From: Actinomycetota bacterium
GTDB lineage: Bacteria; Actinomycetota; Acidimicrobiia; Acidimicrobiales; RAAP-2
Direction: 5' to 3'
DNA length: 64,000 bases
NCBI GenBank assembly: GCA_026393435.1
Contig: JAPLAD010000071.1
Coordinates: 28,857 to 92,856, forward strand
Shown: piece by piece, positions 3,051 through 36,550 of the stretch
Numbering within the stretch: the stretch's first letter is position 1
Layout: each line of letters begins with the position of its first letter
Translations under genes and position numbers: made by a program
The notes under the pieces: model-generated
What the model was told of the DNA's origin: nothing
Database searches by the model: none
The model's input: only the letters and a program-made list of their open reading frames with translations

Positions 3051-4799
3051 GTGCTAAAGAAGGTCTTGATTGCCAATCGCGGAGAAATTGCTGTCCGCGT
3101 CATTCGTACGTGTCGTGAAATGGGTATCGCCACCGTGGCGGTATACAGCGAACTCGACCGAGAAGCGATGCACGTCCGCCTCGCCGATGAGGCCTACGCC
3201 CTTGGTGGTCAGACGGCTGCCGAGAGTTATCTCAACACCGAGGCCATCCTCGATGTCATTGAGCGCTCCGGTGCTGATGCCGTTCACCCCGGCTACGGCT
3301 TCTTTTCAGAAAACACCGACTTTGCGCGCGCAATCACCGCACGTGGCGTGACCTTCATAGGACCACCACCCGAAGCGATCGAAGTCATGGGCGACAAGAT
3401 TTCCTCACGTATTGCCGCACAGGCCGCCGGAGTCTCTGGCGTACCAGGTCGCAACGAGACGTTGACCAGTGGCGAGGAAGTGATCGCCTTTGGTAACGAG
3501 TTCGGTTGGCCCGTAGCTATTAAGGCTGCGTATGGCGGTGGTGGTCGTGGCATGAAGGTCGTCCACTCGGCCGACCAAGCTGCCGAATTGCTCGAGAGTG
3601 CCAAACGTGAAGCCCTGAGCTACTTCGGGCGAGACGAGTGTTACGTCGAGCGCTACCTCACGTGGCCCCGCCACGTTGAGATGCAAGTGCTCGCTGATAC
3701 ACACGGCAACGTGCTGTGGCTTGGTGAGCGCGACTGCTCCGCCCAGCGCCGTCACCAGAAGTTGATTGAGGAGTCTCCGGCGCCAAACTTCCCTGACGAT
3801 GTTCGTCGGGCCATGGGCGAGGCCGCCGTCAAGGTTTCCCGTGCCTGCGGTTACGTGAATGCCGGAACTGTCGAATTTCTCTTCCAGGATGGTGAGTTCT
3901 ATTTCCTCGAAATGAACACTCGCCTCCAGGTGGAGCACCCCGTGACTGAACTCGTCACCGGTCTCGACCTCGTCGAGTGGCAACTGCGCATCGCCGCCGG
4001 CGAAGCGATTCCTTTCGGTCAAGAAGACATTGAACGCCGGGGTCACGCCATTGAAGTTCGCATCAACGCCGAGGACCCCACCGGTGGACGGTTCACCCCC
4101 TCCCCCGGCACAATCACTCGTTTTAGCGAGCCCAGCGGCCCCGGTGTTCGTCTCGATGCCGGCTACGCCCAGGGCGACACCATCAGTCAGTACTACGACA
4201 ACCTCGTCGGCAAGCTCATTGTCTGGGGCCCCGACCGTGACCGCGCCCGCCGACGCTTACTGCGAGCCATCGAAGAAACCGTCATCGAGGGCATCGCAAC
4301 GACATTGCCGGCCGACGTGGCGATTTTGGAGCACCCCGACTTCGTCGAGGGTATTCACTCCACCAAGTGGGTTGAAGAGATCTTGGACCTTTCGGGCATC
4401 GTGGCCACTCCTAGTGCTGTCGGCGACGAAGGTGAGGCACTTGTGCGTCGCTCGGTAACGGCCGAAGTAGGCGGACGCCGTATCAACGTCAATCTGTGGC
4501 TGCCCGAAGTAGTGGGCACGGCAGCCCCTGCGGCTGCCAAGGCTTCACCTCGTCGCGGTGGTGGCGCCAGCGTGACCGGAGCAGGATCGGGTGCCGTGGT
4601 TGTTCCGATGCAAGGAACAATCGTCAAGGTTTCCGTAGCCGTAGGTGACACCGTCGAAGCGGGCCAGACCGTCGTCATTCTCGAAGCCATGAAGATGGAA
4701 AATGCCGTGAACGCTGACAAGGCCGGCGTCGTCAAAGAGGTCAAAGTGGCGGCCGGTGACGGCGTGTCCGCTGGTGACGTCGTCGTGGTTATTGAATGA
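3051..4799 (+). CDS. accA: acetyl/propionyl-CoA carboxylase alpha subunit (biotin carboxylase + BCCP)
   Basis: ATP-grasp biotin carboxylase homology along the full length and a C-terminal biotinyl motif EAMKME. GTG start preceded by GAGGAG. Confidence 0.9.
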   Translation: MLKKVLIANRGEIAVRVIRTCREMGIATVAVYSELDREAMHVRLADEAYALGGQTAAESYLNTEAILDVIERSGADAVHPGYGFFSENTDFARAITARGVTFIGPPPEAIEVMGDKISSRIAAQAAGVSGVPGRNETLTSGEEVIAFGNEFGWPVAIKAAYGGGGRGMKVVHSADQAAELLESAKREALSYFGRDECYVERYLTWPRHVEMQVLADTHGNVLWLGERDCSAQRRHQKLIEESPAPNFPDDVRRAMGEAAVKVSRACGYVNAGTVEFLFQDGEFYFLEMNTRLQVEHPVTELVTGLDLVEWQLRIAAGEAIPFGQEDIERRGHAIEVRINAEDPTGGRFTPSPGTITRFSEPSGPGVRLDAGYAQGDTISQYYDNLVGKLIVWGPDRDRARRRLLRAIEETVIEGIATTLPADVAILEHPDFVEGIHSTKWVEEILDLSGIVATPSAVGDEGEALVRRSVTAEVGGRRINVNLWLPEVVGTAAPAAAKASPRRGGGASVTGAGSGAVVVPMQGTIVKVSVAVGDTVEAGQTVVILEAMKMENAVNADKAGVVKEVKVAAGDGVSAGDVVVVIE

Positions 4800-5959
4800 G
4801 TCTCCACGATCGGATTCAGGGCTCAGTTGCTGCGGTGCGGGACCAACTCTTGGCGCTGAGTCACGATATCCACGCTCGCCCCGAAATTGGGTACGAGGAA
4901 TTTCACGCCGCGGAAGTAACAACAGCACTGCTCGCCAGTCAGGGCTTCGTTATCGAACGGCCCATTGCGGGACTCGAAACTGCCTTTCGAGCTACCAAGG
5001 GCTCGGGCGCACTCCGCATCTCGCTCTGCGCTGAGTACGACGCGCTGCCTGACGTTGGTCACGCCTGCGGTCACAACATCATCGCCTCCTCTTCCGTTGG
5101 GGCGGCGCTGGCATTGGGTGAATTAGCGGATGAAATAGACGCCACGATTGTGGTCTTTGGCACGCCAAGCGAAGAAGGTGGCGGTGGAAAAGTTGACATC
5201 ATTAACGCCGGGCTCTTTGACGATATCCACCTCTCGATGATGGTCCACCCCTGGCCCACCGAACGACTCGAAGCACAGTGCCTCGCCGTCGTAGGTTTCG
5301 AGCTGACCCTCCTCGGCAAGGAGGCTCACGCCTCGGCTGCTCCGTGGGAGGGTCGCAATACCGTTGACGCCCTGACCTTGGCTCAAGTGGCAATCGGACT
5401 CCTACGGCAACAACTCCGCCCCGGCGACCAGGTGCATCACATGGTCAAGACCGGAGGCTCATTTGCCAACATCATCCCCGCCAAGTCGGTGGCCCAGTTC
5501 ATGTGTCGCTCCATCAATATTGAACGACTGAACGAGCTGCGTACAAGAGTGGATAAGTGCTTCCAAGCAGCCACCTTGGCTACCGACACCAGTTACGAAA
5601 TCGAAGTTCTCGGCCACGAGTTCACGCACATGGTTTCCGACGGGGACATCCTCAAGCACTACCGCAGTAATGCGGAGCGCTTTGGGCGTACGTTCGAACT
5701 CGATGACGAGGGCATTACGAAGCCAACGATCTCTACCGATATGGCCAATGTCTCCCTGGTGACCCCATCGATTCACCCTCTCATCAAGATTGAGACCAAC
5801 GGAGCAACAAACCACCAGCCCGAGTTCACCGCATCGTGCATCACGGCCTCGGCCGACCAAGCCGTTCTCGAAGGGGCCATGATTCTGGCCATGACGGCAG
5901 TCGACACTGCGCTCGATGGCCCACTACGTACCCGACTCCTCGAAAGGATCGCTCGATGA
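4796..5959 (+). CDS. M20-family amidohydrolase/peptidase
   Basis: HACGHN metal-binding motif and M20D-like architecture. ATG overlaps the accA stop (ATGA). Confidence 0.8.
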   Translation: MSLHDRIQGSVAAVRDQLLALSHDIHARPEIGYEEFHAAEVTTALLASQGFVIERPIAGLETAFRATKGSGALRISLCAEYDALPDVGHACGHNIIASSSVGAALALGELADEIDATIVVFGTPSEEGGGGKVDIINAGLFDDIHLSMMVHPWPTERLEAQCLAVVGFELTLLGKEAHASAAPWEGRNTVDALTLAQVAIGLLRQQLRPGDQVHHMVKTGGSFANIIPAKSVAQFMCRSINIERLNELRTRVDKCFQAATLATDTSYEIEVLGHEFTHMVSDGDILKHYRSNAERFGRTFELDDEGITKPTISTDMANVSLVTPSIHPLIKIETNGATNHQPEFTASCITASADQAVLEGAMILAMTAVDTALDGPLRTRLLERIAR

Positions 5960-6249
5960 TTCTCGAACACGCATGGCTCACCGTTATCGAGGGCCGCGAA
6001 GCCGAATTTGAATCGGCGATGGCTAAAGCCTTCGCCATCATCGAATCAGCGCCTGGATGCCACGGTGCCGAAGTGCGCCGTGTGGTCGAGAGTCTCAATT
6101 ACGTCTTGATTGTGAAGTGGGACAGCGTCAAGGCACACATGGAGGGATTCCGTACTTCGCCTCTCTTTGAAGAGTGGCGTGCCGCAACGCATCACTTCTA
6201 CTCAGAAAAGCCGTACGTTATTCACTACAGCGAGCCAATCGCCCGCTAG
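5956..6249 (+). CDS. antibiotic-biosynthesis-monooxygenase (ABM) domain protein
   Basis: About 97 aa, with an ABM-like ferredoxin-fold sequence ([19 protein letters not shown]...[14 protein letters not shown]). Start moved to the ATG overlapping the upstream stop. Confidence 0.6.
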
Positions 6250-7780
6250 TTCCGCTCGAACCGCGGGCCGCTGTCGCCAGTTCGTCCAACGCGGCCGTCA
6301 CGGCTGCGTTGTCACGGCGGAGTTTGAGTTCACGCACTCGCTTCTCCTGAGCGCGCTGCTGCTCCACGTCAACTGGGAAGACATCGTTCTTCTGGTTCGT
6401 GGTTTCGTTGAACTTGTTAACACCAACCACCACCTTCTCACCCCGATCAACGGCTCGAGCAAAGTCGTAGGCCGCGGTTTCGATTTCGTCCTGCATGAAG
6501 CGGGCTTCGATAGCGGCTACTGCGCCACCCATCTCGTCAATTCGCTTGATGTAGTCAGTGGCGAGTTCTTCAATCTCGTCGGTGAGGGACTCAACGAAGT
6601 ATGAGCCGGCGAGGGGGTCAGCCGTATCGGCGATACCTGACTCGTAGCCAACGATTTGCTGGGTTCGCAGTGCCAACTTGGCGGCCTGTTCGGTTGGCAG
6701 ACCGAGGGCCTCGTCAAATCCATTGGTGTGCAGACTCTGAGTGCCGCCGAGGGCAGCCGCGAGGGCCTGCAGCGTAACGCGCACCACGTTGTTCTGGGGC
6801 TGCTGGGCCGTCAGGGTCGATCCACCGGTTTGGGTGTGGAATCGAAGCATGGCCGACTTAGGGTCCTGCGACTTAAAGCGTTCTGTCATGATGCGCGCCC
6901 ACAAGCGACGAGCGGCTCGGTACTTGGCAATCTCTTCAAAGAAGTTGTTGTGGGCATTGAAGAAGAAGGAGAGACGTGGCGCAAAGTCATCGAGCTTAAG
7001 TCCGGCCGCGAGCGCCGCTTCAACGTATGCGATGCCGTTCGCGAGCGTGAAGGCCACTTCTTGGGCGGCCGTCGATCCCGCTTCTCGAATGTGGTAACCG
7101 GAGATTGAAATCGTGTTCCAGTTCGGAATCTCCTTGGCGCAGTAGGCGAAGGTGTCAACGATGAGGCGCATGGAAGGCCGCGGTGGGTAGATGTACGTTC
7201 CGCGAGCAACGTACTCCTTCAAGATGTCGTTTTGAATTGTTCCGCGGAGCTTGTCGCCAGAGACACCCTGCTCTTCACCGACGAGCTGGTACATCAACAG
7301 GAGCGATGAAGCAGTGGAGTTAATCGTCATCGAGGTTGTCACTTCGTCGAGTGGTAATCCGCTCAGCAGGAGACGCATGTCTTCGAGTGACGAGATGGCG
7401 ACGCCAACTTTGCCCACTTCGCCTTCAGCTCGAACATGATCCGAGTCAAAACCCATCTGGGTCGGCAAGTCAAGGGCACACGAGAGTCCGGTCTGGCCGG
7501 CTCCGAGGAGAAATTTGAACCTTTCGTTGGTGGCTTCGGCCGTTCCGAAACCGGCGTACTGGCGCATCGTCCAGAGTCGACCGCGGTACATCGTCGGCTG
7601 CACCCCGCGGGTGTAGGGGTACGTACCGGGCGTGCCCAGGTCACTCTCTGGGGCGAAGCCCTCGAGGTCTTCGGGGCCGTAGACCGGCTTAATCTCGATA
7701 CCTGAATCCGTAAATCGTCCATTTGCGCTTGTCACAACTACCAAGGTTAGAGGTTTGCGCCGAACTTGACGATTCGACAT
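6218..7780 (-). CDS. acyl-CoA (methylmalonyl/isobutyryl-CoA type) mutase large subunit, substrate-binding barrel only
   Basis: [22 protein letters not shown] and [12 protein letters not shown] mutase motifs. At 520 aa it has no C-terminal DxHxxG B12-binding domain. Confidence 0.85.
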
Positions 7781-7794
7781 GGCACGATGTCTGG

Positions 7795-8835
7795 GTGAGT
7801 TCGACTACCCCACGGGTCCTAATGGTGCTACCCAATGACGGTACGGGTGGTATGCAGGCTCAGGTCCGCCTCATCAGCGAGGCTCTGGCCAGTTCCGGTA
7901 GTCAAGTCAGCGTTCTGATTGGCGGAGGCACCACCAAGGAATCCGTGGGAGGAGTGGCCTATCTTGTCGCCCCTCCGCTTCTCAAATGGTTCGGGATTCC
8001 CTTTCTCTATGCACTTCGTCGCCATGCTCGACTACTGCGAGCCGATGTAGTTCACGGCCACGGGCTACGCACGGGCCCCTTCGTGGCTCTCGCTCGTCGT
8101 CGGGCCAAGCGGTTCGTGACCTGCCACGGAATCGACCCGACGGCCGTTCCTAAGGGTCTTCTGCGACTTCTACGTCTCCTACCCGTCAAAGTTTTAGCCT
8201 GCGGCCCTGGACCGCAATCAGTTCTGCAGACCTTCGGCTTCACTGTTGGGCTCTTGGAAAACGCCACCCCGCCCGAATGGACTCCAAGGACTCGTTCAGA
8301 GTTCAATGAGCGGTTTGGCACAACCGACGACGACTTTGTTGCCTTGTGGCCGGCTCGGTTCTCGGCACAAAAAGATCATGGTTCACTACTCGCATTCGCT
8401 CAATGCCTACGCGATACGAACGTGGTGATGGTCTGCTGTGGCGATGGACCACTGCGAGCGCAATTTGAGTCGCGGATCATCGCTCTCGGACTCGAACGCA
8501 ACTTTCGAACGGTGGACTTTGTAAGTGACGCCGCAGCCTGGTTACCCGCAACCGATTACTTCCTTTTGCCTTCCAAATGGGAGGGACAACCGCTCGTTCT
8601 CCTTGAAGCCATGCGCGCCGGCATCCCTGCGGTGACCTGGACCACAATCGGTGCTGAACTGCTCCCCCTGTCGTCACACGTTGCGTCGCCAGAGGAAGGG
8701 GCAGCACGCGTTCTTTCGTGGATGAATGCACCGAAATCTGCGAACGTCGAGATAGAAACGCAGCGAACGATTGCCGCCGGGCATGCACTCAGTATCGCAA
8801 TTTCCTGGTATCAATCGCTTTACTATTCCTACTGA
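7795..8835 (+). CDS. GT4-family glycosyltransferase
   Basis: N-terminal [14 protein letters not shown] and C-terminal [18 protein letters not shown] (E-x7-E). Start is uncertain: GTG 7795 or ATG 7822. Confidence 0.7.
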
Positions 8836-8853
8836 ACAGACCAAGGAGCACCA

Positions 8854-9357
8854 ATGTTTTGTACCGAGTGTGGAACGCAGTATGACGGTCAGCAGTGTGG
8901 CGCCTGTACTAGCGCCTCGAGCCAACTGGAATTGGCTGGCTGGTGGAAGCGAGTCGGGGCATCGCTCGTGGACTTTCTCGTTCTTGTGCCGCTGCTGCTC
9001 GTTGTGGGTGTGGCCCTAGTCGACGCTCAACCCATTATCGCCACTCTCGTTGGCTTTGCTATTCAGTTCGCGTACCTATCGCTCATGTGGACAAAGCGCC
9101 ACGGGCAAACCGTCGGCGCCAAGGCACTCAGAATTCGCGTCGTCGCTGCCGACGGCAGCCCCATGACACCCGAGATGGCCTACCGGCGCGCCGCGGTCCT
9201 CCAGCTCCTCAATGTTGGTTCCTCCATGACCTGGGTCTTGCGACCACTAGGTCAGGTAGCATTCTTGCTCAACGTCCTCTGGCCCCTCTGGGACCCGCAG
9301 AAGCAGACTCTGCACGACAAGGCTGCTGGCACCATTGTGGTAACCGCGAAGGACTAA
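8854..9357 (+). CDS. RDD-family membrane protein with N-terminal zinc ribbon
   Basis: MFCTECG...CGAC zinc ribbon, followed by an RDD-like region (WWKRVGASLVDF) and TM segments. Confidence 0.7.
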   Translation: MFCTECGTQYDGQQCGACTSASSQLELAGWWKRVGASLVDFLVLVPLLLVVGVALVDAQPIIATLVGFAIQFAYLSLMWTKRHGQTVGAKALRIRVVAADGSPMTPEMAYRRAAVLQLLNVGSSMTWVLRPLGQVAFLLNVLWPLWDPQKQTLHDKAAGTIVVTAKD

Positions 9358-10520
9358 GCCTTCAACACCGCATGAGGCATGCAGAACTCGTCATACTCGG
9401 CAATCACAATTTCCCCAGCGTTCTCGCCACAGGCAGGGCACGCGGGGTCGCGACGGACCTTGAAGGTTCTAAATGACTGGTCGAGTGCGTCGTAGCTAAG
9501 CAGACGGCCCACCAACGGATCGCCCAAGTTCAAGATGAGCTTTAACGCTTCAAGAGCCTGGATCGAACCAATGATGCCGGGCAGCACGCCCAAAACACCG
9601 GCCTCGGCACAGCTTGGCGCGAGTTCGGCGGGCGGTGGCTCGGGAATCATGCAGCGGTAGCAAGGTCCGACGTAGGGGTTGAAGATGGTGACTTGACCCT
9701 CGAATCGAAAGATTGAACCGTGCACGACGGGAATCTTCTTTAAGAGAGCGGCATCGTTGACGAGGTAGCGCGTCGGGAAGTTGTCCGTTCCGTCGACGAT
9801 GACGTCGTAGCCATCGATGATGTCCAGGATGTTGTCGGCACCCAAGCGGGTGTCGTACGTGATCACATTCAGATCGGGATTGAGCGCTGACAACGTCGCC
9901 TTCGCGGAGTCGACTTTGCGCATTCCGACGCGGTCCATGTTGTGGAGAATCTGACGCTGAATGTTCGAAGCGTCAACCACGTCCATGTCAATGACGCCGA
10001 TTGTTCCAACACCGGCCGCGGCGAGGTACAGCGCCGAAGGCGAACCGAGTCCGCCCGCACCGAGCATTAAGACCTTGGCGTCAAGCAACTTGAGCTGACC
10101 CACTTCGCCAACTTCAGGCAGTAGTAGGTGACGCTGGTAGCGGTTGCGCTGATCGGCCGTCAGCGTCCGAGGAGTCGTCCAAGGCAGGCCGTCGTCCTTC
10201 CACTTGTTGAAACCACCGATAACCGAAACAACGTCTTGGTAGCCGAGGTCTTGCAACGTCTTGGTCGCAAAGGCCGAACGGACACCACCGGCGCAATAGA
10301 CGGCGATGTGCGCAGTCTTGTCGGGTAGACGACCTTCAATCGAGAATTCGAGCTGACCACGGGGCACGTGGACGGCGTTAGGGACGGCGCCCTGGTCGTA
10401 CTCGTCCGGTTCGCGGACGTCGAGAATGGTGAAGTGATCTAGTTGCGCCGCAACAGCCGAGGCTTCGATTTCACGAATCTCGGACTTGGCGGCGTTGAGT
10501 AAGTCGCGGGGGGTAGCCAT
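9354..10520 (-). CDS. MoeZ/MoeB-ThiF-type adenylyltransferase fused to an N-terminal rhodanese domain
   Basis: Residues ~1-115 are rhodanese (ILDVREPDEY...VYCAGGVRS...GGFNKW). The remainder is ThiF/MoeB (LMLGAGGLGSPSALYLAAAGVG, CYRC...CPAC zinc site). Confidence 0.85.
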   Translation of the reverse strand: MATPRDLLNAAKSEIREIEASAVAAQLDHFTILDVREPDEYDQGAVPNAVHVPRGQLEFSIEGRLPDKTAHIAVYCAGGVRSAFATKTLQDLGYQDVVSVIGGFNKWKDDGLPWTTPRTLTADQRNRYQRHLLLPEVGEVGQLKLLDAKVLMLGAGGLGSPSALYLAAAGVGTIGVIDMDVVDASNIQRQILHNMDRVGMRKVDSAKATLSALNPDLNVITYDTRLGADNILDIIDGYDVIVDGTDNFPTRYLVNDAALLKKIPVVHGSIFRFEGQVTIFNPYVGPCYRCMIPEPPPAELAPSCAEAGVLGVLPGIIGSIQALEALKLILNLGDPLVGRLLSYDALDQSFRTFKVRRDPACPACGENAGEIVIAEYDEFCMPHAVLKA

Positions 10521-10593
10521 AGTGAACTCCTTTAGGAGTTAAACCCTACCATTTTGGTCAGGAATAGACAACGGCGTCTTTTAGTCTGCCTAG

Positions 10594-11190
10594 GTGGAGT
10601 TCTCCGATCTCGCCCGCCGGCGCCGTATGGTCCGTTCCTTTGATGGCACGCCCGTGCCTGGCGATCTGATGGCTGCGTGGTGCGAATTGGCACTGAGTGC
10701 TCCAACGGCCGGCAATAGTGCCGGCGTCCAGTTCGTCGTGATTGAACCAATCAAGGTCGCTGCATACTTTGAGGCCGCCACCGATAAGTCGTGGCGTTCA
10801 AATGCTCGACGCGCCGATGGCCTCCTGCGTGCCGGTGGTGTAGTCCTCGCTCTTTCGAATCCCGACCTCTATACCGGGCGCTACAGCGAAGCCGACAAGG
10901 CCCAGAGCGGACTCGCCAATCAAGACGCCTGGCCCATCCCCTACTGGCACACCGACGCCGCCATGGCCACGATGCAGTTGCTCCTTGCGGTCGAAGACGA
11001 GAATTGGGCCACCTGTTTTTGGGGCAACTTTCGTCATGAAGCCGAGATCTTGTCGCTAGCCGGAGTAACCGCACCATGGCGCCTGTTCGGCAGCATTTTG
11101 ATCGGACGTCCCGACGGCAACGATGTGCGCTCGCCGTCGCTTGATCGCGATGTGCCGTCACGCACATCGCGCGTACTACGACTGTCGTGA
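10594..11190 (+). CDS. nitroreductase-family protein
   Basis: RRRRMVRSFDGTPVP N-terminal motif and nitroreductase-like length. GTG start. Confidence 0.6.
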   Translation: MEFSDLARRRRMVRSFDGTPVPGDLMAAWCELALSAPTAGNSAGVQFVVIEPIKVAAYFEAATDKSWRSNARRADGLLRAGGVVLALSNPDLYTGRYSEADKAQSGLANQDAWPIPYWHTDAAMATMQLLLAVEDENWATCFWGNFRHEAEILSLAGVTAPWRLFGSILIGRPDGNDVRSPSLDRDVPSRTSRVLRLS

Positions 11191-12675
11191 GCGCGTAATC
11201 AGATACTGCAGCAGAGTGCGAGCACCGAATGCCGTCGCGCCACGCTGGTAGTACCCGCGCGCGCTGTCCGTTCGACTTGGTCCAGCCACATCGAGGTGAG
11301 CCCACGAAATACCGTTCGTGAAGTTCCTCAGGAACAGCGCCGCGACAATCGCACCGGCGTTGCCGGGTTTACCAAGGTTCTTGAGATCAGCGACGTCAGA
11401 CTCGAGCTGAGACTCGTAGCCATCCACCAGCGGGAGCTGCCAAAAGGGTTCACCGGTTTCACTACTGGCAGCCAAGAGCTGTGAGGCCAGCACGTCATCA
11501 GTTGCAAACAGCGCACCCATGTCTTCACCGAGCGCCACAACTTGCGCACCTGTCAACGTGGCGATATCAATAATTGCGTCAGGCTGCCGCTCGGCCGCCA
11601 GACTTAGTCCGTCGGCCAAGATGATCCGACCTTCAGCATCGGGGTTGATAATTTCCACCGTCTTGCCGTTGCGAATCTTCAGCACGTCACCGGGCCTCAT
11701 CGCTGCGCCACCGATCATGTTCTCGGTGAGAGGGGCGATCGCGGTGATGCGAATCGGGAGAGCCATTTCGGCCGCAGTGGCGATGACCGAGATAACAATG
11801 GCTGCGCCCGCCATGTCCGTCTTCATCGTGGCCATACCCGCTGGCGTCTTCAGCCAAAGGCCCCCAGTATCAAAGGTGACCCCTTTGCCGACGAGTACGA
11901 CGTGGGGTGCCTCAGGATTACCGGCCGGAGCGTAGGTGGCGAGTACGAGGCGGGCAGGCTGCGACGAGCCGAGATTTACGCCCTGGAGTCCACCGAGGCC
12001 TTCTTCGGCGATCTTGGAGTCCTTCCAGATTTCCAGTTCGACATTGGGAATCCCTTCAAGACGTGCGGTGGCAAAGTTAGCGAACGCTTTGGGATGAAGA
12101 TCCATACCAGGCATATCGATGAGATGCTTGGCCCAATTCACGCTGCTCGCAACGAGCGAACCGAGGCGCACACCATCGGCCACGCTTTCGTCCAGTGACT
12201 CGGCATCAGGTCCAACCGCGATGATGCCGACTGGGGCACTCTCCGGGGCACCTTTGTAGGAATAATTTGCGAGCAGCACTCCTTCAACCAGCGCCTGGGC
12301 GATGTCAACCACAGGCCGAGTGGGCCAAATTGAGAGAATTATGGCGGTGGGCACCTTGGGCGATACTTTGGCGGCCATCGCACCAATCTGACGCCACTGT
12401 TCTCGTGAAGTACTCGCACCGTTCGTGACCACAAGCGTGACGGCGGTTCCGTCAACTGCGCGAAAGGTCACCGAAGAGCCCAATTTGGGACGAAGGCCTT
12501 GCTTCTCACACCACTCCGAAGAAATCGGCGACGGCAGGGTGACGCCATTCACGATGGCCGGCACTCCCGCGGCCACGGTGAGGGCACCATCAGTTAGGAC
12601 CAAGGGAACTACTACGGAACTGAAACTTGTGAGTTCACGAATAGATGAAACCGAAACAGTGCGAGCCATGCTCAT
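11176..12675 (-). CDS. pepA: leucyl aminopeptidase (M17)
   Basis: VGKGVTFDTGGLWLK and NPDAEGR M17 signature motifs. Confidence 0.9.
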   Translation of the reverse strand: MSMARTVSVSSIRELTSFSSVVVPLVLTDGALTVAAGVPAIVNGVTLPSPISSEWCEKQGLRPKLGSSVTFRAVDGTAVTLVVTNGASTSREQWRQIGAMAAKVSPKVPTAIILSIWPTRPVVDIAQALVEGVLLANYSYKGAPESAPVGIIAVGPDAESLDESVADGVRLGSLVASSVNWAKHLIDMPGMDLHPKAFANFATARLEGIPNVELEIWKDSKIAEEGLGGLQGVNLGSSQPARLVLATYAPAGNPEAPHVVLVGKGVTFDTGGLWLKTPAGMATMKTDMAGAAIVISVIATAAEMALPIRITAIAPLTENMIGGAAMRPGDVLKIRNGKTVEIINPDAEGRIILADGLSLAAERQPDAIIDIATLTGAQVVALGEDMGALFATDDVLASQLLAASSETGEPFWQLPLVDGYESQLESDVADLKNLGKPGNAGAIVAALFLRNFTNGISWAHLDVAGPSRTDSARGYYQRGATAFGARTLLQYLITRSRQS

Positions 12676-25397: not shown

Positions 25398-26102
25398 TTA
25401 CGCGTTTAGGTCAAGTGAGGTGAGGTCGGGACCCACTACGAGATTGCCGGAAAAATGCTCCTTAGCGGCGGCGGCCCACTCGGCTTCGCCCCCGGGCGGA
25501 GGTGCCGGCACGTAGTGCGTCAAAATCAAGTGCTTGATTCCGGCTCGTTGTGCCGTTTGGGCGGCCTGCTCAACCGTGGAGTGGTAATCCAAGATGTCCT
25601 GGAGGCGAGCGATCGGCACCATTTTCACGATGTCTTCGCGCAATACAGTCTGGACGTAGGCATCCGCGCCGACGAGTAATTCGTCGAGCGAGTCACAAGG
25701 AACACCGTCACCGGCCATCACTACGTCATGTACGCCATCGGAAATACGAAAGCCGACTGAGGGGTGAACCGGCCGGTGGTCAGTTTCGCCAACCTTCACC
25801 TTCATCGTTCCCACGGTAAAGACGTCACCTGGGCCCACTTCCACAACATTGAGGCGCGGCGCGGCGTTGAGGTCATCGTGATGCGAAATGCGGTAGTGGA
25901 TGTCTGCTTCCAACATTTCGAGGATGTGTTGCACCATCTTGATGGTGCCGGGTGGCCCCCAGATTGAGAGTGGCACCTCAGAGTCGGGCTGCGACATAAC
26001 CCAGTACGACGTAATGATGTCATTTAGATCACAGATGTGATCACTGTGCAGGTGCGTTAATAAGACACCAGCGAGCATGGGCGGGAAATAGCCCGCTCCC
26101 AC
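25398..26102 (-). pseudogene. MBL-fold metallo-hydrolase, 5'-truncated at the inverted-repeat junction
   Basis: The ORF starts only about 15 codons before THLHSDH, whereas MBL folds normally have about 40-60 residues upstream of it. An in-frame stop lies at 26136-26138 inside the repeat arm. Confidence 0.6.
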
Positions 26103-26395
26103 GAGTGGCGTGTTTTTCTCGGAGTTGGACGATATCTACCCCGCCACGAAGGACTGCCGGCAGAAATGTACCCATGTCGGGTCGGATCCCGACGCAGAGA
26201 TAGAGATGGCGAGAATGGAGATTCCACACGCAACCACCCTGAAGCCTCCTCCTAGGGTGGTTGCGTGTGGAATCTCCATTCTCGCCATCTCTATCTCTGC
26301 GTCGGGATCCGACCCGACATGGGTACATTTCTGCCGGCAGTCCTTCGTGGCGGGGTAGATATCGTCCAACTCCGAGAAAAACACGCCACTCGTGG
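26099..26395. repeat. perfect inverted repeat: 142-bp arms (26099-26240 / 26254-26395), 13-nt spacer GAAGCCTCCTCCT
   Basis: Arms checked block by block as exact reverse complements. ORFs 26110..26358(+) and 26136..26441(-) translate to the same peptide. Confidence 0.95.
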
Positions 26396-26888
26396 TGATG
26401 TTCAGCGAGTAGCCGCCCTCGAGATGCGTGAAATTTGCCACGCGTATGGCGTGCCTTTCATCATGAATGATGACCCCGAACTAGCCCTAGAGGTGGGGGC
26501 TGATGGGGTCCACGTGGGTCAAGACGATGCCACTGTCGAATACTGCCGGTCCGTCCTAGGCGACCAAGCCATTATTGGTATCTCTACCCATGCGGATGCG
26601 GAATTTACCGCCGCATTGTCCCTCTCCGTCTCCTATCGATCAGCCGGGCCAATTGTGGCCACACCGACTAAGAAGGAGCGAATGCCGACCGGCGTGGAGT
26701 ACGCCGTGCGGTCTCAGCTCAGTAGTAGTGATCCCGTCTTTGTGACGGGCGGCGTCGATCTTGGCACACTCCCCGACCTTCTCGGCCGGGGGCTTCGTCA
26801 CTTTGTGGTGGTTCGAGCCCTCACTGAGTCAACGGCACCCGAGGCCACGGCCCGGTCGATGGCCCAACTCATTCATTCTGCGCTTTAG
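26265..26888 (+). CDS. thiE: thiamine-phosphate synthase
   Basis: HLYLCVG...GGVDIVQLREK...FIMNDDPELALEVGADGVHVGQDD matches the ThiE pattern. The first ~43 codons lie in the right repeat arm. Confidence 0.85.
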   Translation: MWNLHSRHLYLCVGIRPDMGTFLPAVLRGGVDIVQLREKHATRGDVQRVAALEMREICHAYGVPFIMNDDPELALEVGADGVHVGQDDATVEYCRSVLGDQAIIGISTHADAEFTAALSLSVSYRSAGPIVATPTKKERMPTGVEYAVRSQLSSSDPVFVTGGVDLGTLPDLLGRGLRHFVVVRALTESTAPEATARSMAQLIHSAL

Positions 26889-27628: not shown

Positions 27629-27633
27629 GAAAC

Positions 27634-28749
27634 TCAGATTCCGAGCAGTTGCGCCAGAATCTCGCGGTGGTAAGCAGGGTCACCAAGCAACAGTTCGCTG
27701 CTCTTGGCCCGCTTGAAGTAGAGGTGCGCGTGGTGTTCCCACGTGAAACCAATACCACCGTGGATCTGAATGTTCTCGCCGGCACAGTGGAAGTAGGCCT
27801 CTGAGCAGTAGGACTTGGCCAAGCTGGCGGCAACGGCGAGGTCGTCGCTGTTCTCCTGTGAGCAGTAGGCGGCGTAGTACGCAGCCGACTTGGCGGACTC
27901 AACTTCGAGCAGCATGTCTGCCGCCTTGTGCTTGATGGCCTGGAACGAACCGATGGGACGACCAAACTGGACGCGCTCCTTGGCGTACGCCACGGCATTG
28001 TCGAGCACGCGCTGGCTTCCGCCAACCTGCTCAGCAGCCAACAGAGCGGCAGCCTTTTGCAACGCCACCTTGAGGCCAGCCTCGGCACCACCGTCGGTAC
28101 CAATGAGACGGGCGGGGGTGTTAACGAATTCGAGGCGGCTCTGCTTACGGGTCTGGTCCATGGTGGGCAGCGCGGTGGCGGTCAAACCGGCAGCATTGCT
28201 GGCGACAGCGAAGAGTGAGAGACCCTTGTCGGTCTTGGCCGAAACCAAGATTAACGAAGCGGAGCTTCCGTCGATGACGTAGTTCTTCACACCGTTAATG
28301 CTGTAGGAATCACCCGAACCACTGGCGGTGGTCGACGTGTCAGACACGGTCCAGCTACCAGCGTCGTCGGTCAAAGCCAACGTGGCGATTGTCTCGCCCG
28401 TGGCGATGCCGGGGAGGTACTCAGCCTTGGCCTTGTCGTCGCCCGACTCGAGCAACGCGTTAGCGGCGAGGGCGACAGTGGAGAAGTAGGGAGCACAGAG
28501 CAGTGCTGCGCCCATCTCTTCAAAGACGACGTACTGCTCAACGGGGCCAAAACCTTGGCCACCGAACTCTTCAGGAATACCGAGCGCCTGGAGTCCAAGC
28601 TCTTCGGCCATCTGCTTCCAAACGGACTTGTCGTAACCGTCAGCGGTCGCCATCTGCTCACGAACGGCAGTCTCGGGGGACTTGTCATCAAGGAATCGAC
28701 GGACCATCTTTCGTAGTTCGTCTTGCTCTTCGCTGAATCCAAAGTTCAT
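27634..28749 (-). CDS. acyl-CoA dehydrogenase
   Basis: MNFGFSEEQDELRKMV start and ACAD domains through the C-terminal GGIGFTWEH. Start moved from 28971 to ATG 28749. Confidence 0.85.
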   Translation of the reverse strand: MNFGFSEEQDELRKMVRRFLDDKSPETAVREQMATADGYDKSVWKQMAEELGLQALGIPEEFGGQGFGPVEQYVVFEEMGAALLCAPYFSTVALAANALLESGDDKAKAEYLPGIATGETIATLALTDDAGSWTVSDTSTTASGSGDSYSINGVKNYVIDGSSASLILVSAKTDKGLSLFAVASNAAGLTATALPTMDQTRKQSRLEFVNTPARLIGTDGGAEAGLKVALQKAAALLAAEQVGGSQRVLDNAVAYAKERVQFGRPIGSFQAIKHKAADMLLEVESAKSAAYYAAYCSQENSDDLAVAASLAKSYCSEAYFHCAGENIQIHGGIGFTWEHHAHLYFKRAKSSELLLGDPAYHREILAQLLGI

Positions 28750-35713: not shown

Positions 35714-36550
35714 ATGTCATTTGAATCACCAGTACTGACCCTCGAAGTACAGGGGCACGTCGCCACTCTCTGGCTGGACCGGGTCGAGGCCCGTAACGCC
35801 ATGGGGCGCGACTTATGGCAGGACTTGCCTCGCGCTGCCGCCGAAGTGGCCGGCAATGATGACGTCCGCGTCCTCATCATCGCGGCCCGGGGGCCTCACT
35901 TCACAGTGGGCCTCGATCTCAAGCAGATGGGCAGCAACTTTGTTGTTAGCGGCACCGACCGATCGGCCGCCCAAAAGAGTGAGTCTCTCTATCGAGATGT
36001 CCGACGGATGCAAGACGCCATCACGTGCTTTGCCGAACTCAAGGTCCCCGTCATCGCTGCGGTGCACGGATACTGCATCGGTGGTGGCATTGACCTCATC
36101 TGTGCGGCCGACGTTCGCTACGCGAGTTCTGACGCCATTTTTTCAGTACGGGAGGCCAAGGTTGCCATCGTGGCCGACCTCGGCACCTTGCAGCGACTTC
36201 CAAAAATCGTCAGTGCCGGTCACGTGGCCGAGCTGGCCTTCACCGGTAAGGACATCAGGGACATCAGTGCGGCTCGTGCCGAGCGCATCGGGCTGGTCAA
36301 TGACGTCGTGGATGGATCCGCCGACGAGGTCTACGCCAAGGCGCTGGAGCTCGCCACGGAGATTGCAGCCAACTCACCACTCGTCGTAGCGGGCACCAAG
36401 ACGGTGCTGGCCGCTAACGAAGGACGCACCGTGCAGGAGGGTCTCGAATTCGTGGCCGCCTGGAACACGATGTACATCCAGAGCAACGACCTCATCGAAG
36501 CGATGGCCGCTTTCATGGAGAAGCGTCAGCCAACGTTCCGGGGAAATTAA
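35714..36550 (+). CDS. enoyl-CoA hydratase/isomerase (crotonase) family
   Basis: AAVHGYCIGGGIDL oxyanion-hole region; crotonase length. Confidence 0.85.
   Translation: MSFESPVLTLEVQGHVATLWLDRVEARNAMGRDLWQDLPRAAAEVAGNDDVRVLIIAARGPHFTVGLDLKQMGSNFVVSGTDRSAAQKSESLYRDVRRMQDAITCFAELKVPVIAAVHGYCIGGGIDLICAADVRYASSDAIFSVREAKVAIVADLGTLQRLPKIVSAGHVAELAFTGKDIRDISAARAERIGLVNDVVDGSADEVYAKALELATEIAANSPLVVAGTKTVLAANEGRTVQEGLEFVAAWNTMYIQSNDLIEAMAAFMEKRQPTFRGN

Follow-up and report, generated by a model that had tools for sequence, protein, structure and literature searches.

A long perfect palindrome at the thiE start of a freshwater Acidimicrobiia contig, probably a non-native chimera of two polymerase template switches

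Inverted copies of neighbouring sequence have been described both among amplification products and among the products of DNA repair. Of MDA chimeras, 85% comprise an inverted segment with an intervening deletion and show junction complementarity of 2–21 nt (PMC1855051), and they occur at a frequency of about one per 10–20 kb of product (Lasken & Stockwell 2007, PMC1855051). Snap-back MMEJ by the bacterial G2L4 RT is reported in a preprint (10.1101/2022.03.14.484287). A further comparison is offered by interrupted palindromes, a class reported to form lagging-strand hairpins that are cleaved by SbcCD (PMC4245961, PMC3315005).

The locus described here lies in a window of 64,000 nucleotides, the whole stretch of DNA that was analysed, and is made up of two 142-nt arms that are 100% complementary and flank a 13-nt spacer (Table 1). 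The repeat search thus reproduced the exact reverse-complement arms of the original prediction. The palindrome is the sole inverted repeat of at least 30 nt above ~75% identity in the window, and the next-best inverted repeats are 30–43 nt long with 72–74% identity. The chance probability of one specific perfect arm pair of this length is ~10^-85, and as single-stranded DNA the palindrome has a predicted fold of -211 kcal/mol (z = -40 against shuffles). The right arm consists of 11 nt of leader and 131 nt of coding sequence (43.7 codons). It had been taken for the genuine start of thiE, and rightly so: it is collinear with native thiE in all references, the N-terminus that it encodes (MWNLHSRHLYLCVG) is conserved in relatives, and GTG 26265 opens a 207-aa ThiE (Pfam TMP-TENI, 3.7e-44; TIGR00693 above cut-off). 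The left arm, which had been read as an inverted copy of the thiE 5' end, indeed carries the same leader and codons, and it aligns in inverted orientation to positions 4959–5099 of the native locus L003 (a stretch of GCA_009726065.1, WLNA01000002.1), with the same result for seven references. In the native arrangement the spacer corresponds to L003:5100-5112, in a region that is conserved across five species. Two antisense ORFs (26110-26358, plus strand, and 26136-26441, minus strand) run through the palindrome; they had been said to translate to the same peptide, which is true of the sequence that they share but not of four spacer-encoded residues (KPPP versus GGGF) and an N-terminal extension.

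Table 1. Features of the palindrome locus, with positions counted from the first nucleotide of the window.
Feature	Position	Strand	Description
Truncated RNase Z-like MBL-fold gene	25398..26102	-	234/277 codons left; Pfam Lactamase_B_2
Private SNV	26072	-	27 nt outside left arm; MBL Thr->Ala; T in 7/7 references
Left arm	26099..26240	.	Non-native inverted copy of thiE 5' end (11-nt leader and codons 1-43.7)
Outer junction J1	26100..26112	.	13-nt microhomology, CACGAGTgGCGTG versus native MBL CACGAGTcGCGTG, 12/13
Fold-back junction J2	26240..26241	.	Join of …CCACCCT and GAAGCC…; native …GGTTAGGC before GAAGCC
Spacer GAAGCCTCCTCCT	26241..26253	+	Native thiE-upstream sequence, contiguous with right arm; fold-back loop
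Right arm	26254..26395	+	Genuine thiE leader and start, GTG at 26265
thiE (thiamine phosphate synthase)	26265..26888	+	Coding sequence intact; three private amino-acid changes
Private 3-nt duplication CTCGTG-GTG-ATG	26392..26397	+	Adds Gly44 to ThiE; at right arm outer end
Two private SNVs	26419, 26446	+	24 and 51 nt outside right arm; ThiE R52L and F61Y

The native form of the locus was obtained from conspecific assemblies, which were found via a neighbouring Rrf2 protein and an alpha/beta-hydrolase whose sequences recur unchanged on many public contigs. The sources were several ENA metagenome assemblies, the NCBI MAG GCA_009726065.1 and Logan assemblies; nine references were available with DNA (L001-L006, L008, L104 and L105) and the tenth as a gene table only. 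The conspecific population is one of freshwater Acidimicrobiia, known only from MAGs. All ten independent conspecific assemblies spanning the junction have the native layout of a 277-aa MBL gene, 56 bp and a divergent thiE, and the window is 99.7–100% identical to the conspecific references outside the palindrome. The palindrome itself is carried by none of the ten, which derive from other samples or other assemblies, and by none of four related species (0/4). In these four closest species (MBL identity 94, 94, 70 and 68%) thiE is likewise divergent, across a gap of 53–56 bp, and each of 80 related species (80 of 80) has an MBL match that begins at or close to residue 1, so that the full N-terminus is retained. 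Synteny in related genomes had been named as a check on the original prediction, and the conventional MBL-intergenic-thiE order is what the ten conspecific assemblies and the four related species display. Exact look-ups in an index of 153 billion genes returned neither the ThiE of 207 or 189 aa nor the MBL protein of 234 aa nor a mutase of 520 aa. Furthermore, a 37-nt pattern common to the native and rearranged forms had no match in JGI metagenome contigs, a ThiE protein scan of metagenome contigs gave only ~60%-identical relatives, and a first thiE scan of genome contigs gave no match.

The anatomy of the REARRANGEMENT is given in window orientation, with the native sequence as reference. Native sequence extends to 26112 and resumes at 26241, from where it takes in the spacer, thiE and all that follows. 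Absent are 151 native bp (L003:5113-5263), of which 119 nt form the start of the MBL gene and 32 nt come from the 56-nt intergenic region; this native-only stretch includes …GGTTAGGCGAAGCC… / …GACGAGGTTAGGCGAAGCC… and the MBL start ATGAAAATTACACTGCTGGG / ATGAAAATTACACTGCTGGGAACC. The place of the 151 bp is taken by a 128-nt reverse complement of the thiE 5' end, and the junction product links MBL nt 119/132 to thiE nt 131 in reverse complement. The native and rearranged forms differ in length by only 20 bp.

The outer junction J1, which is spanned by …GCCCGCTCCCACGAGTGGCGTGTTTTTCTCGG… (within 26095-26115), has a perfect run of 7–8 nt within its 12/13 match, and position 26107 carries the thiE-type G (C->G versus native MBL). 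The two partner sequences exist in the native locus as an A/A' pair (L003 4959-4971 / 5264-5276), which is 92% complementary, lies 292 nt apart in the MBL gene and thiE, and is the best inverted repeat of the native 750-bp neighbourhood. Since J1 coincides with this best inverted repeat, whose one mismatch has become the thiE base in the window, its position is, judging from the sequence, directed by strand annealing and not by chance. The 2-bp CC/GG microhomology that had been assigned to the outer junction must therefore be replaced by one of 13 nt (12/13) that pre-existed in the native locus. The inner CC/GG pair (26100/26394) falls inside these 13 nt, and the outer pair (26099/26395) is complementary only because of the private GTG duplication in thiE. 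At the fold-back junction J2, spanned by …CAACCACCCTGAAGCCTCCTCC… (within 26235-26246), comparison with the native sequence revealed no microhomology on either strand, and no base pairing that could prime a fold-back is possible between the loop ends on either strand.

The MBL gene has lost its promoter region, its ribosome-binding site GAGGAG (Shine-Dalgarno), its start codon and its first 43 codons, in agreement with the earlier view that its 5' end is missing (277 aa in native copies versus 234 aa in the window). The remaining ORF (25398-26102, minus strand) starts 15 codons ahead of THLHSDH, and CTA at 26136-26138 is an in-frame TAG for this ORF; both had been predicted. Aligned over residues 2–275 with positions 3–276 of the 280-position NCBIfam ribonuclease Z profile NF000806, the native 277-aa protein scores 329.7 bits, below the cut-off of 363, and it is best described as RNase Z-like. 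The window was also searched for tRNA genes to gauge RNase Z dependence, and none was found.

The earlier statement that the native upstream region of thiE is absent holds for 32 of the 56 intergenic nt, and 24 nt are retained. Within the retained part, 6 nt ahead of the GTG, lies a TAGGGT hexamer that is conserved in all five species aligned, and thiE has no Shine-Dalgarno sequence. Actinobacterial promoters in general provide part of the grounds for reading such a hexamer as a -10 element of a leaderless transcript. These features suggest that the thiE mRNA is leaderless, starting at 26265 within the right arm and excluding the left arm. The earlier idea that the hairpin would bury the thiE ribosome-binding site is therefore doubtful, given that thiE lacks a Shine-Dalgarno sequence and that the conserved TAGGGT fits a leaderless mRNA without the left arm. 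A scan with the E. coli-type sigma-70 consensus found no promoter in the native or the rearranged intergenic region, and an Rfam search of the whole window and of the native locus L003 gave no matches at gathering score, TPP riboswitch included.

Private changes, scored at the 42,630 positions with at least two references, cluster around the arms. The GTG duplication is missing from seven conspecific references and four related species; in every relative examined, ThiE position 61 is Phe and Gly44 is absent. All three private SNVs near the arms are non-synonymous, and together with the 3-nt duplication they lie no more than 55 nt outside the arms. The background is seven scattered private SNVs in 31 kb, where the references are ~99.9% identical, or ~1 per 4.4 kb, and at this rate the probability of at least three private SNVs in 120 nt is 3e-6. 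The 284 nt of the arms contain no changes, and ~80 nt of flank contain four. Templating of the flanking SNVs by nearby sequence was considered and rejected, the longest matches being 7–9 nt and equal to those of random substitutions. Import from a divergent strain was also rejected, as the variant residues occur in no relative and the arms are without differences. The flanking changes thus look like copying or consensus errors tied to the rearrangement and not like polymorphism, since they are neither alleles of relatives nor templated. As for the duplication, a nascent-strand hairpin would form behind the polymerase copying the second arm and would be completed at the outer end of that arm, which may have led to slippage there; this account would hold in vivo just as it would in vitro.

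The contig carries another private lesion. A deletion at 6253|6254 has taken from the window 101 bp that four independent references retain, and with them the 3' end and the stop of a methylmalonyl-CoA-mutase-domain gene, whose product is shortened from 542 aa to 520 aa. The junction of this deletion is blunt, with no microhomology. Three of the four references are mutually identical over 8.4 kb, where the window has five private SNVs in addition to the deletion. No further structural differences were seen in the remaining compared parts of the window, for which fewer or less similar references were available. In ~43 kb of comparable sequence, two disruptive private lesions are far more than expected, and implausible for a viable free-living streamlined bacterium.

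The palindrome is probably a non-native chimera of two polymerase template switches that arose outside the living population, at the stage of amplification or assembly. The anatomy of the locus, the two junctions, the error cluster beside the arms and the lack of the palindrome elsewhere are established by the sequence comparisons; that polymerase switching is the cause, and that it took place in vitro, we infer. A minus strand synthesised leftward would copy thiE and the 13-nt spacer and would then turn back onto the strand just made (J2). After 141 nt, the new 3' end CACGCCACTCGTG would anneal to the complementary site in the MBL gene (J1), where synthesis would continue. By this path 128–141 nt of the thiE 5' end would be copied in inverted orientation and 151 native bp replaced. 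The chimeric molecule, MDA-like or formed in the library, would have come to dominate the locus in the source data, or the region may have been mis-assembled or mis-polished. If the palindrome is such a chimera, the true genome has the conventional arrangement of the MBL gene, 56 bp and thiE. The original prediction had left open a fold-back or template-switch duplication on the one hand and an amplification or assembly chimera on the other, and both survive the comparison with native loci.

The principal competitor, which we regard as possible but distinctly less probable than a chimera, is that the palindrome is a genuine and very recent scar of a double-strand break or stalled fork in vivo, which knocked out the RNase Z-like gene. 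On one such route, proposed tentatively, an intergenic double-strand break would be followed by the snapping back of the thiE-side 3' overhang with a 13-nt loop and its extension by ~141 nt to CACGCCACTCGTG. The extended end might then pair with the site of 12/13 complementarity in the resected end on the MBL side, after which the break would be sealed; this would amount to synthesis-dependent MMEJ. An equivalent route would have a stalled replication fork make the same two template switches. On either route, error-prone fill-in or perturbed synthesis would leave the flanking changes, and thiE would probably still be expressed from the retained -10-like TAGGGT. The position of J1 on the best native inverted microhomology, with 26107 converted, indicates annealing-primed copying in the case of a chimera and is also the classic mismatch correction of a quasi-palindrome in vivo. 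The three non-synonymous private SNVs and the 3-nt duplication by the arms (P = 3e-6) count towards a chimera, as apparent copying or consensus errors. However, mutation clusters beside breakpoints also mark error-prone replicative repair in vivo, of which they are a recognised signature in the MMBIR literature. The private cluster here does adjoin the breakpoints, and the duplication lies exactly where a nascent-strand hairpin would be completed, if that link is right. The absence of mutations from the 284 nt of the arms, beside four in ~80 nt of flank, speaks against a scar and against a chimera alike. The want of microhomology at J2 also weighs on both readings: a fold-back in vivo would have to proceed without a priming microhomology, and at least 2 bp are found in 93.5% of proximal inverted MDA junctions (PMC1855051). 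An inverted segment with an intervening deletion is the dominant form of MDA chimera (PMC1855051), but two switches 141 nt apart in one molecule are unusual in vitro. The locus matches snap-back templated inverted insertions, with deletion and microhomology rejoining, as known from repair studies (PMC2943611, PMC5728401, PMC11724301), although its insert of 128–141 nt is much longer than typical yeast snap-back insertions, which are reported to be mostly ~5–34 bp (PMC11724301). In favour of a chimera, all ten conspecific assemblies are native, the full MBL N-terminus is kept in 80 of 80 related species, none of the variant products of the window occurs in the 153-billion-gene index, and a conserved housekeeping gene, the RNase Z-like one, would be inactivated by the event. 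The same counts speak against a scar, which is carried by 0/10 conspecific assemblies and would have destroyed a gene that is full length in all 80 relatives. Neither arm has departed from perfect complementarity or from the native allele, which leaves no evolutionary time since the event. The private gene-truncating lesion ~20 kb away (6253|6254) supports a chimera too and makes a generally error-laden source more economical than a scar. In E. coli, moreover, SbcCD cuts interrupted palindromes about as long as this one or longer at every round of replication (PMC4245961), and such cleavage is reported in a second study (PMC3315005). Since palindromes cleaved in this way can be repaired (PMC4245961), the allele would be costly but not impossible.

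Read support argues on the other side. Junction k-mers cannot be made up by a de Bruijn assembler, and good coverage is implied by a contig that reaches at least 64 kb. It is therefore probable that most of the library at this locus carried the rearranged allele, as with a real allele, and strong read support of this kind would be expected of a scar. The junction k-mers also bear on a purely computational artefact (graph traversal, a contig-end hairpin, scaffolding, gap-closing or polishing) with no physical molecule behind it, which we judge improbable. Those spanning J2 are absent from the native sequence and must derive from reads, and the 12/13 match over 13 nt at J1 indicates strand annealing, 13 nt being shorter than any usual k. 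Nevertheless, the local cluster resembles consensus errors, and the arm length is 141 nt by native identity (142 with the extra pair), which equals the default maximum k of MEGAHIT or k+1; this assembler produced several related assemblies (contig names k141_*). No mechanism was found by which a de Bruijn graph at k = 141 would yield arms of 141/142 nt, and the agreement was set aside as a coincidence. A computational origin is also favoured by a Logan contig (L105, sample SRR20698642) that ends 3 nt into the J1 microhomology. An explanation of this end as a k = 31 branch against the rearranged allele was rejected, the predicted break lying ~33 nt further on. It is scarcely credible that the palindrome is a functional element, be it a regulatory hairpin or attenuator of thiE, a bidirectional terminator, a site of recombination or resolution or a substitute for a riboswitch. 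Such a role would be suggested by the great strength of the predicted hairpin and by the thiE start inside it, but the palindrome is found in 0/10 conspecific assemblies and 0/4 related-species loci, one arm merely copies coding sequence, a conserved gene is truncated, and neither the window nor the native locus has an Rfam match. On these grounds, a conserved or functional element is effectively excluded.

The palindrome is most probably an assembly-private chimera or scar of a well-known kind and not part of the real genome. Its recognition is of value for curation: without it, annotation of this genome would yield a truncated RNase Z-like pseudogene, a ThiE in which three residues are unusual and two antisense ORFs that are spurious. 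Annotators also need to be warned of at least one further private lesion of the contig, the 101-bp deletion at 6253. If the allele were real, it would be a rare and fully resolved case of error-prone fold-back repair together with a tolerated long palindrome in a wild bacterium, of moderate interest to DNA-repair specialists and not a new kind of system. As a true scar, it would be a snapshot of long snap-back synthesis and microhomology rejoining in uncultivated freshwater Acidimicrobiia, in which repair had left a palindrome, a corrected quasi-palindrome, a cluster of point mutations in the flanks and, at the base of the hairpin, a duplication by slippage.

Among the described systems, MDA inverted chimeras are approached in that the locus joins inverted segments a few hundred bp apart, with a deletion (PMC1855051), in that the complementarity of 13 nt (12/13) at J1 lies within the priming range of 2–21 nt, and in that a second lesion 20 kb away is compatible with their frequency (PMC1855051). 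Unlike in such chimeras, two junctions occur here 141 nt apart, the sequence returns to the forward strand, and J2 has a complementarity of 0 nt. Snap-back SD-MMEJ shares with the locus a deletion combined with inverted copying of the sequence immediately next to it, a short loop (13 nt here) and rejoining at a microhomology made or exposed by the new synthesis (PMC2943611, PMC5728401, PMC11724301; 10.1101/2022.03.14.484287). The inserts described for it comprise a few to tens of nt, in contrast to 128–141 nt here, and the fold-back at this locus has no priming repeat. Furthermore, the organisms in which these snap-back and fold-back systems were described are flies, yeast and Pseudomonas, and not Acidimicrobiia. 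As in quasi-palindrome mutagenesis, a native imperfect inverted repeat (92%) has been made perfect (26107 C->G), whereas classical events of that type alter a few stem bases and here 128 nt were copied and 151 nt lost. Point changes and a small indel clustered near the breakpoints recall MMBIR/FoSTeS-type rearrangements. Finally, in overall form the palindrome resembles the engineered chromosomal palindromes of E. coli from the Leach laboratory, which are described as a few hundred bp long and interrupted by a short spacer (PMC4245961, PMC3315005); unlike the palindrome reported here, those are deliberate constructs, and they serve as a yardstick of stability in E. coli.

The 101-bp deletion private to the window, by which a gene encoding a methylmalonyl-CoA mutase domain loses its 3' end together with its stop codon, is a second sign of non-native lesions in the contig. 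The deletion junction is blunt (…GCTAGTTCC joined to GCTCGAACC…), and the window ORF encodes a product of 520 aa, compared with 542 aa in four independent references. No record of the shortened 520-aa product was found elsewhere.

Coordinates of the features discussed, in the window and in reference contigs
Feature	Window	Reference
101-bp deletion	6253/6254	L011:14268-14368
Mutase-domain ORF	6218-7780(-)	
Scattered private SNVs	5255, 7474, 7653, 29873; also 8523, 18497, 9262	
Region containing the L010 patch	4082-12442	
Contig L007, 100% identity	20958-25469	
Variant shared with L007	22820	
MBL gene	25398-26102	L003:5145-5978
Palindrome	26099-26395	
rnz-like/thiE intergenic region, native		L003:5089-5144
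Retained part of the intergenic region	26241-26264	
End of contig L105		L003:5266
L001/L006 divergent patch	27633-28440	
Enoyl-CoA hydratase-like gene	35714-36550	
9-nt tandem duplication	36241-36258	

Inside an enoyl-CoA hydratase-like gene, GGACATCAG occurs twice in tandem, a 9-nt duplication that gives a product of 278 aa, as against 275 aa. The duplication is absent from the references covering the site; as these represent a more divergent strain (~98.5-98.9%), it could be natural. Most of the scattered private SNVs change an amino acid (S->P, F->L, V->A and A->G), two being synonymous and one intergenic. This share of non-synonymous changes is close to the neutral expectation, and the pattern is compatible with mutations of very recent origin or with errors in the sequence. 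The conspecific assemblies L001 and L006 differ from the window by 60-88 positions in a dense patch inside an acyl-CoA dehydrogenase gene with near-identical surroundings, which suggests that divergent DNA was imported by recombination in the population. A comparable patch of 107 private SNVs is seen in L010.

Two contigs from the Logan run SRR20698642 bear on the strain and on the palindrome. L007 matches the window without a difference and includes a variant that is otherwise window-only, and the run may contain the window's strain or be its source. L105, which has the native arrangement, terminates 3 nt into the 13-nt microhomology at the outer palindrome junction (J1), a position for which a simple k = 31 branch does not account. 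Counting only identity with native sequence, the palindrome arms measure 141 nt; an extra G:C pair from the GTG duplication brings them to 142 nt. These lengths equal the default maximum k of MEGAHIT (141) or k+1. Several related contigs were assembled by MEGAHIT (names k141_*); no mechanism was found linking arm length to k, and the match is taken as coincidence.

The native intergenic region between the rnz-like gene and thiE comprises 56 bp (…CCACCCTAGGAG.AGGCTTCGCCTAACCTC…), part of which the window keeps, and among the five species compared it is better conserved than the coding sequence on either side. TAGGGT lies in it 6 nt before the thiE GTG, and the opposite strand carries TAACCT upstream of the Shine-Dalgarno sequence of the MBL gene. 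The two motifs are possible -10 boxes placed back to back, with a putatively leaderless thiE.

The protein encoded by the native MBL gene is RNase Z-like; its score of 329.7 bits falls just short of the 363 bits set as cut-off for the NCBIfam equivalog. Anti-Pycsar_Apyc1 (PF23023) is also listed for it in the precomputed Pfam table and, given this listing and the score below the cut-off, its candidate substrates are tRNA 3' ends or cyclic nucleotides.
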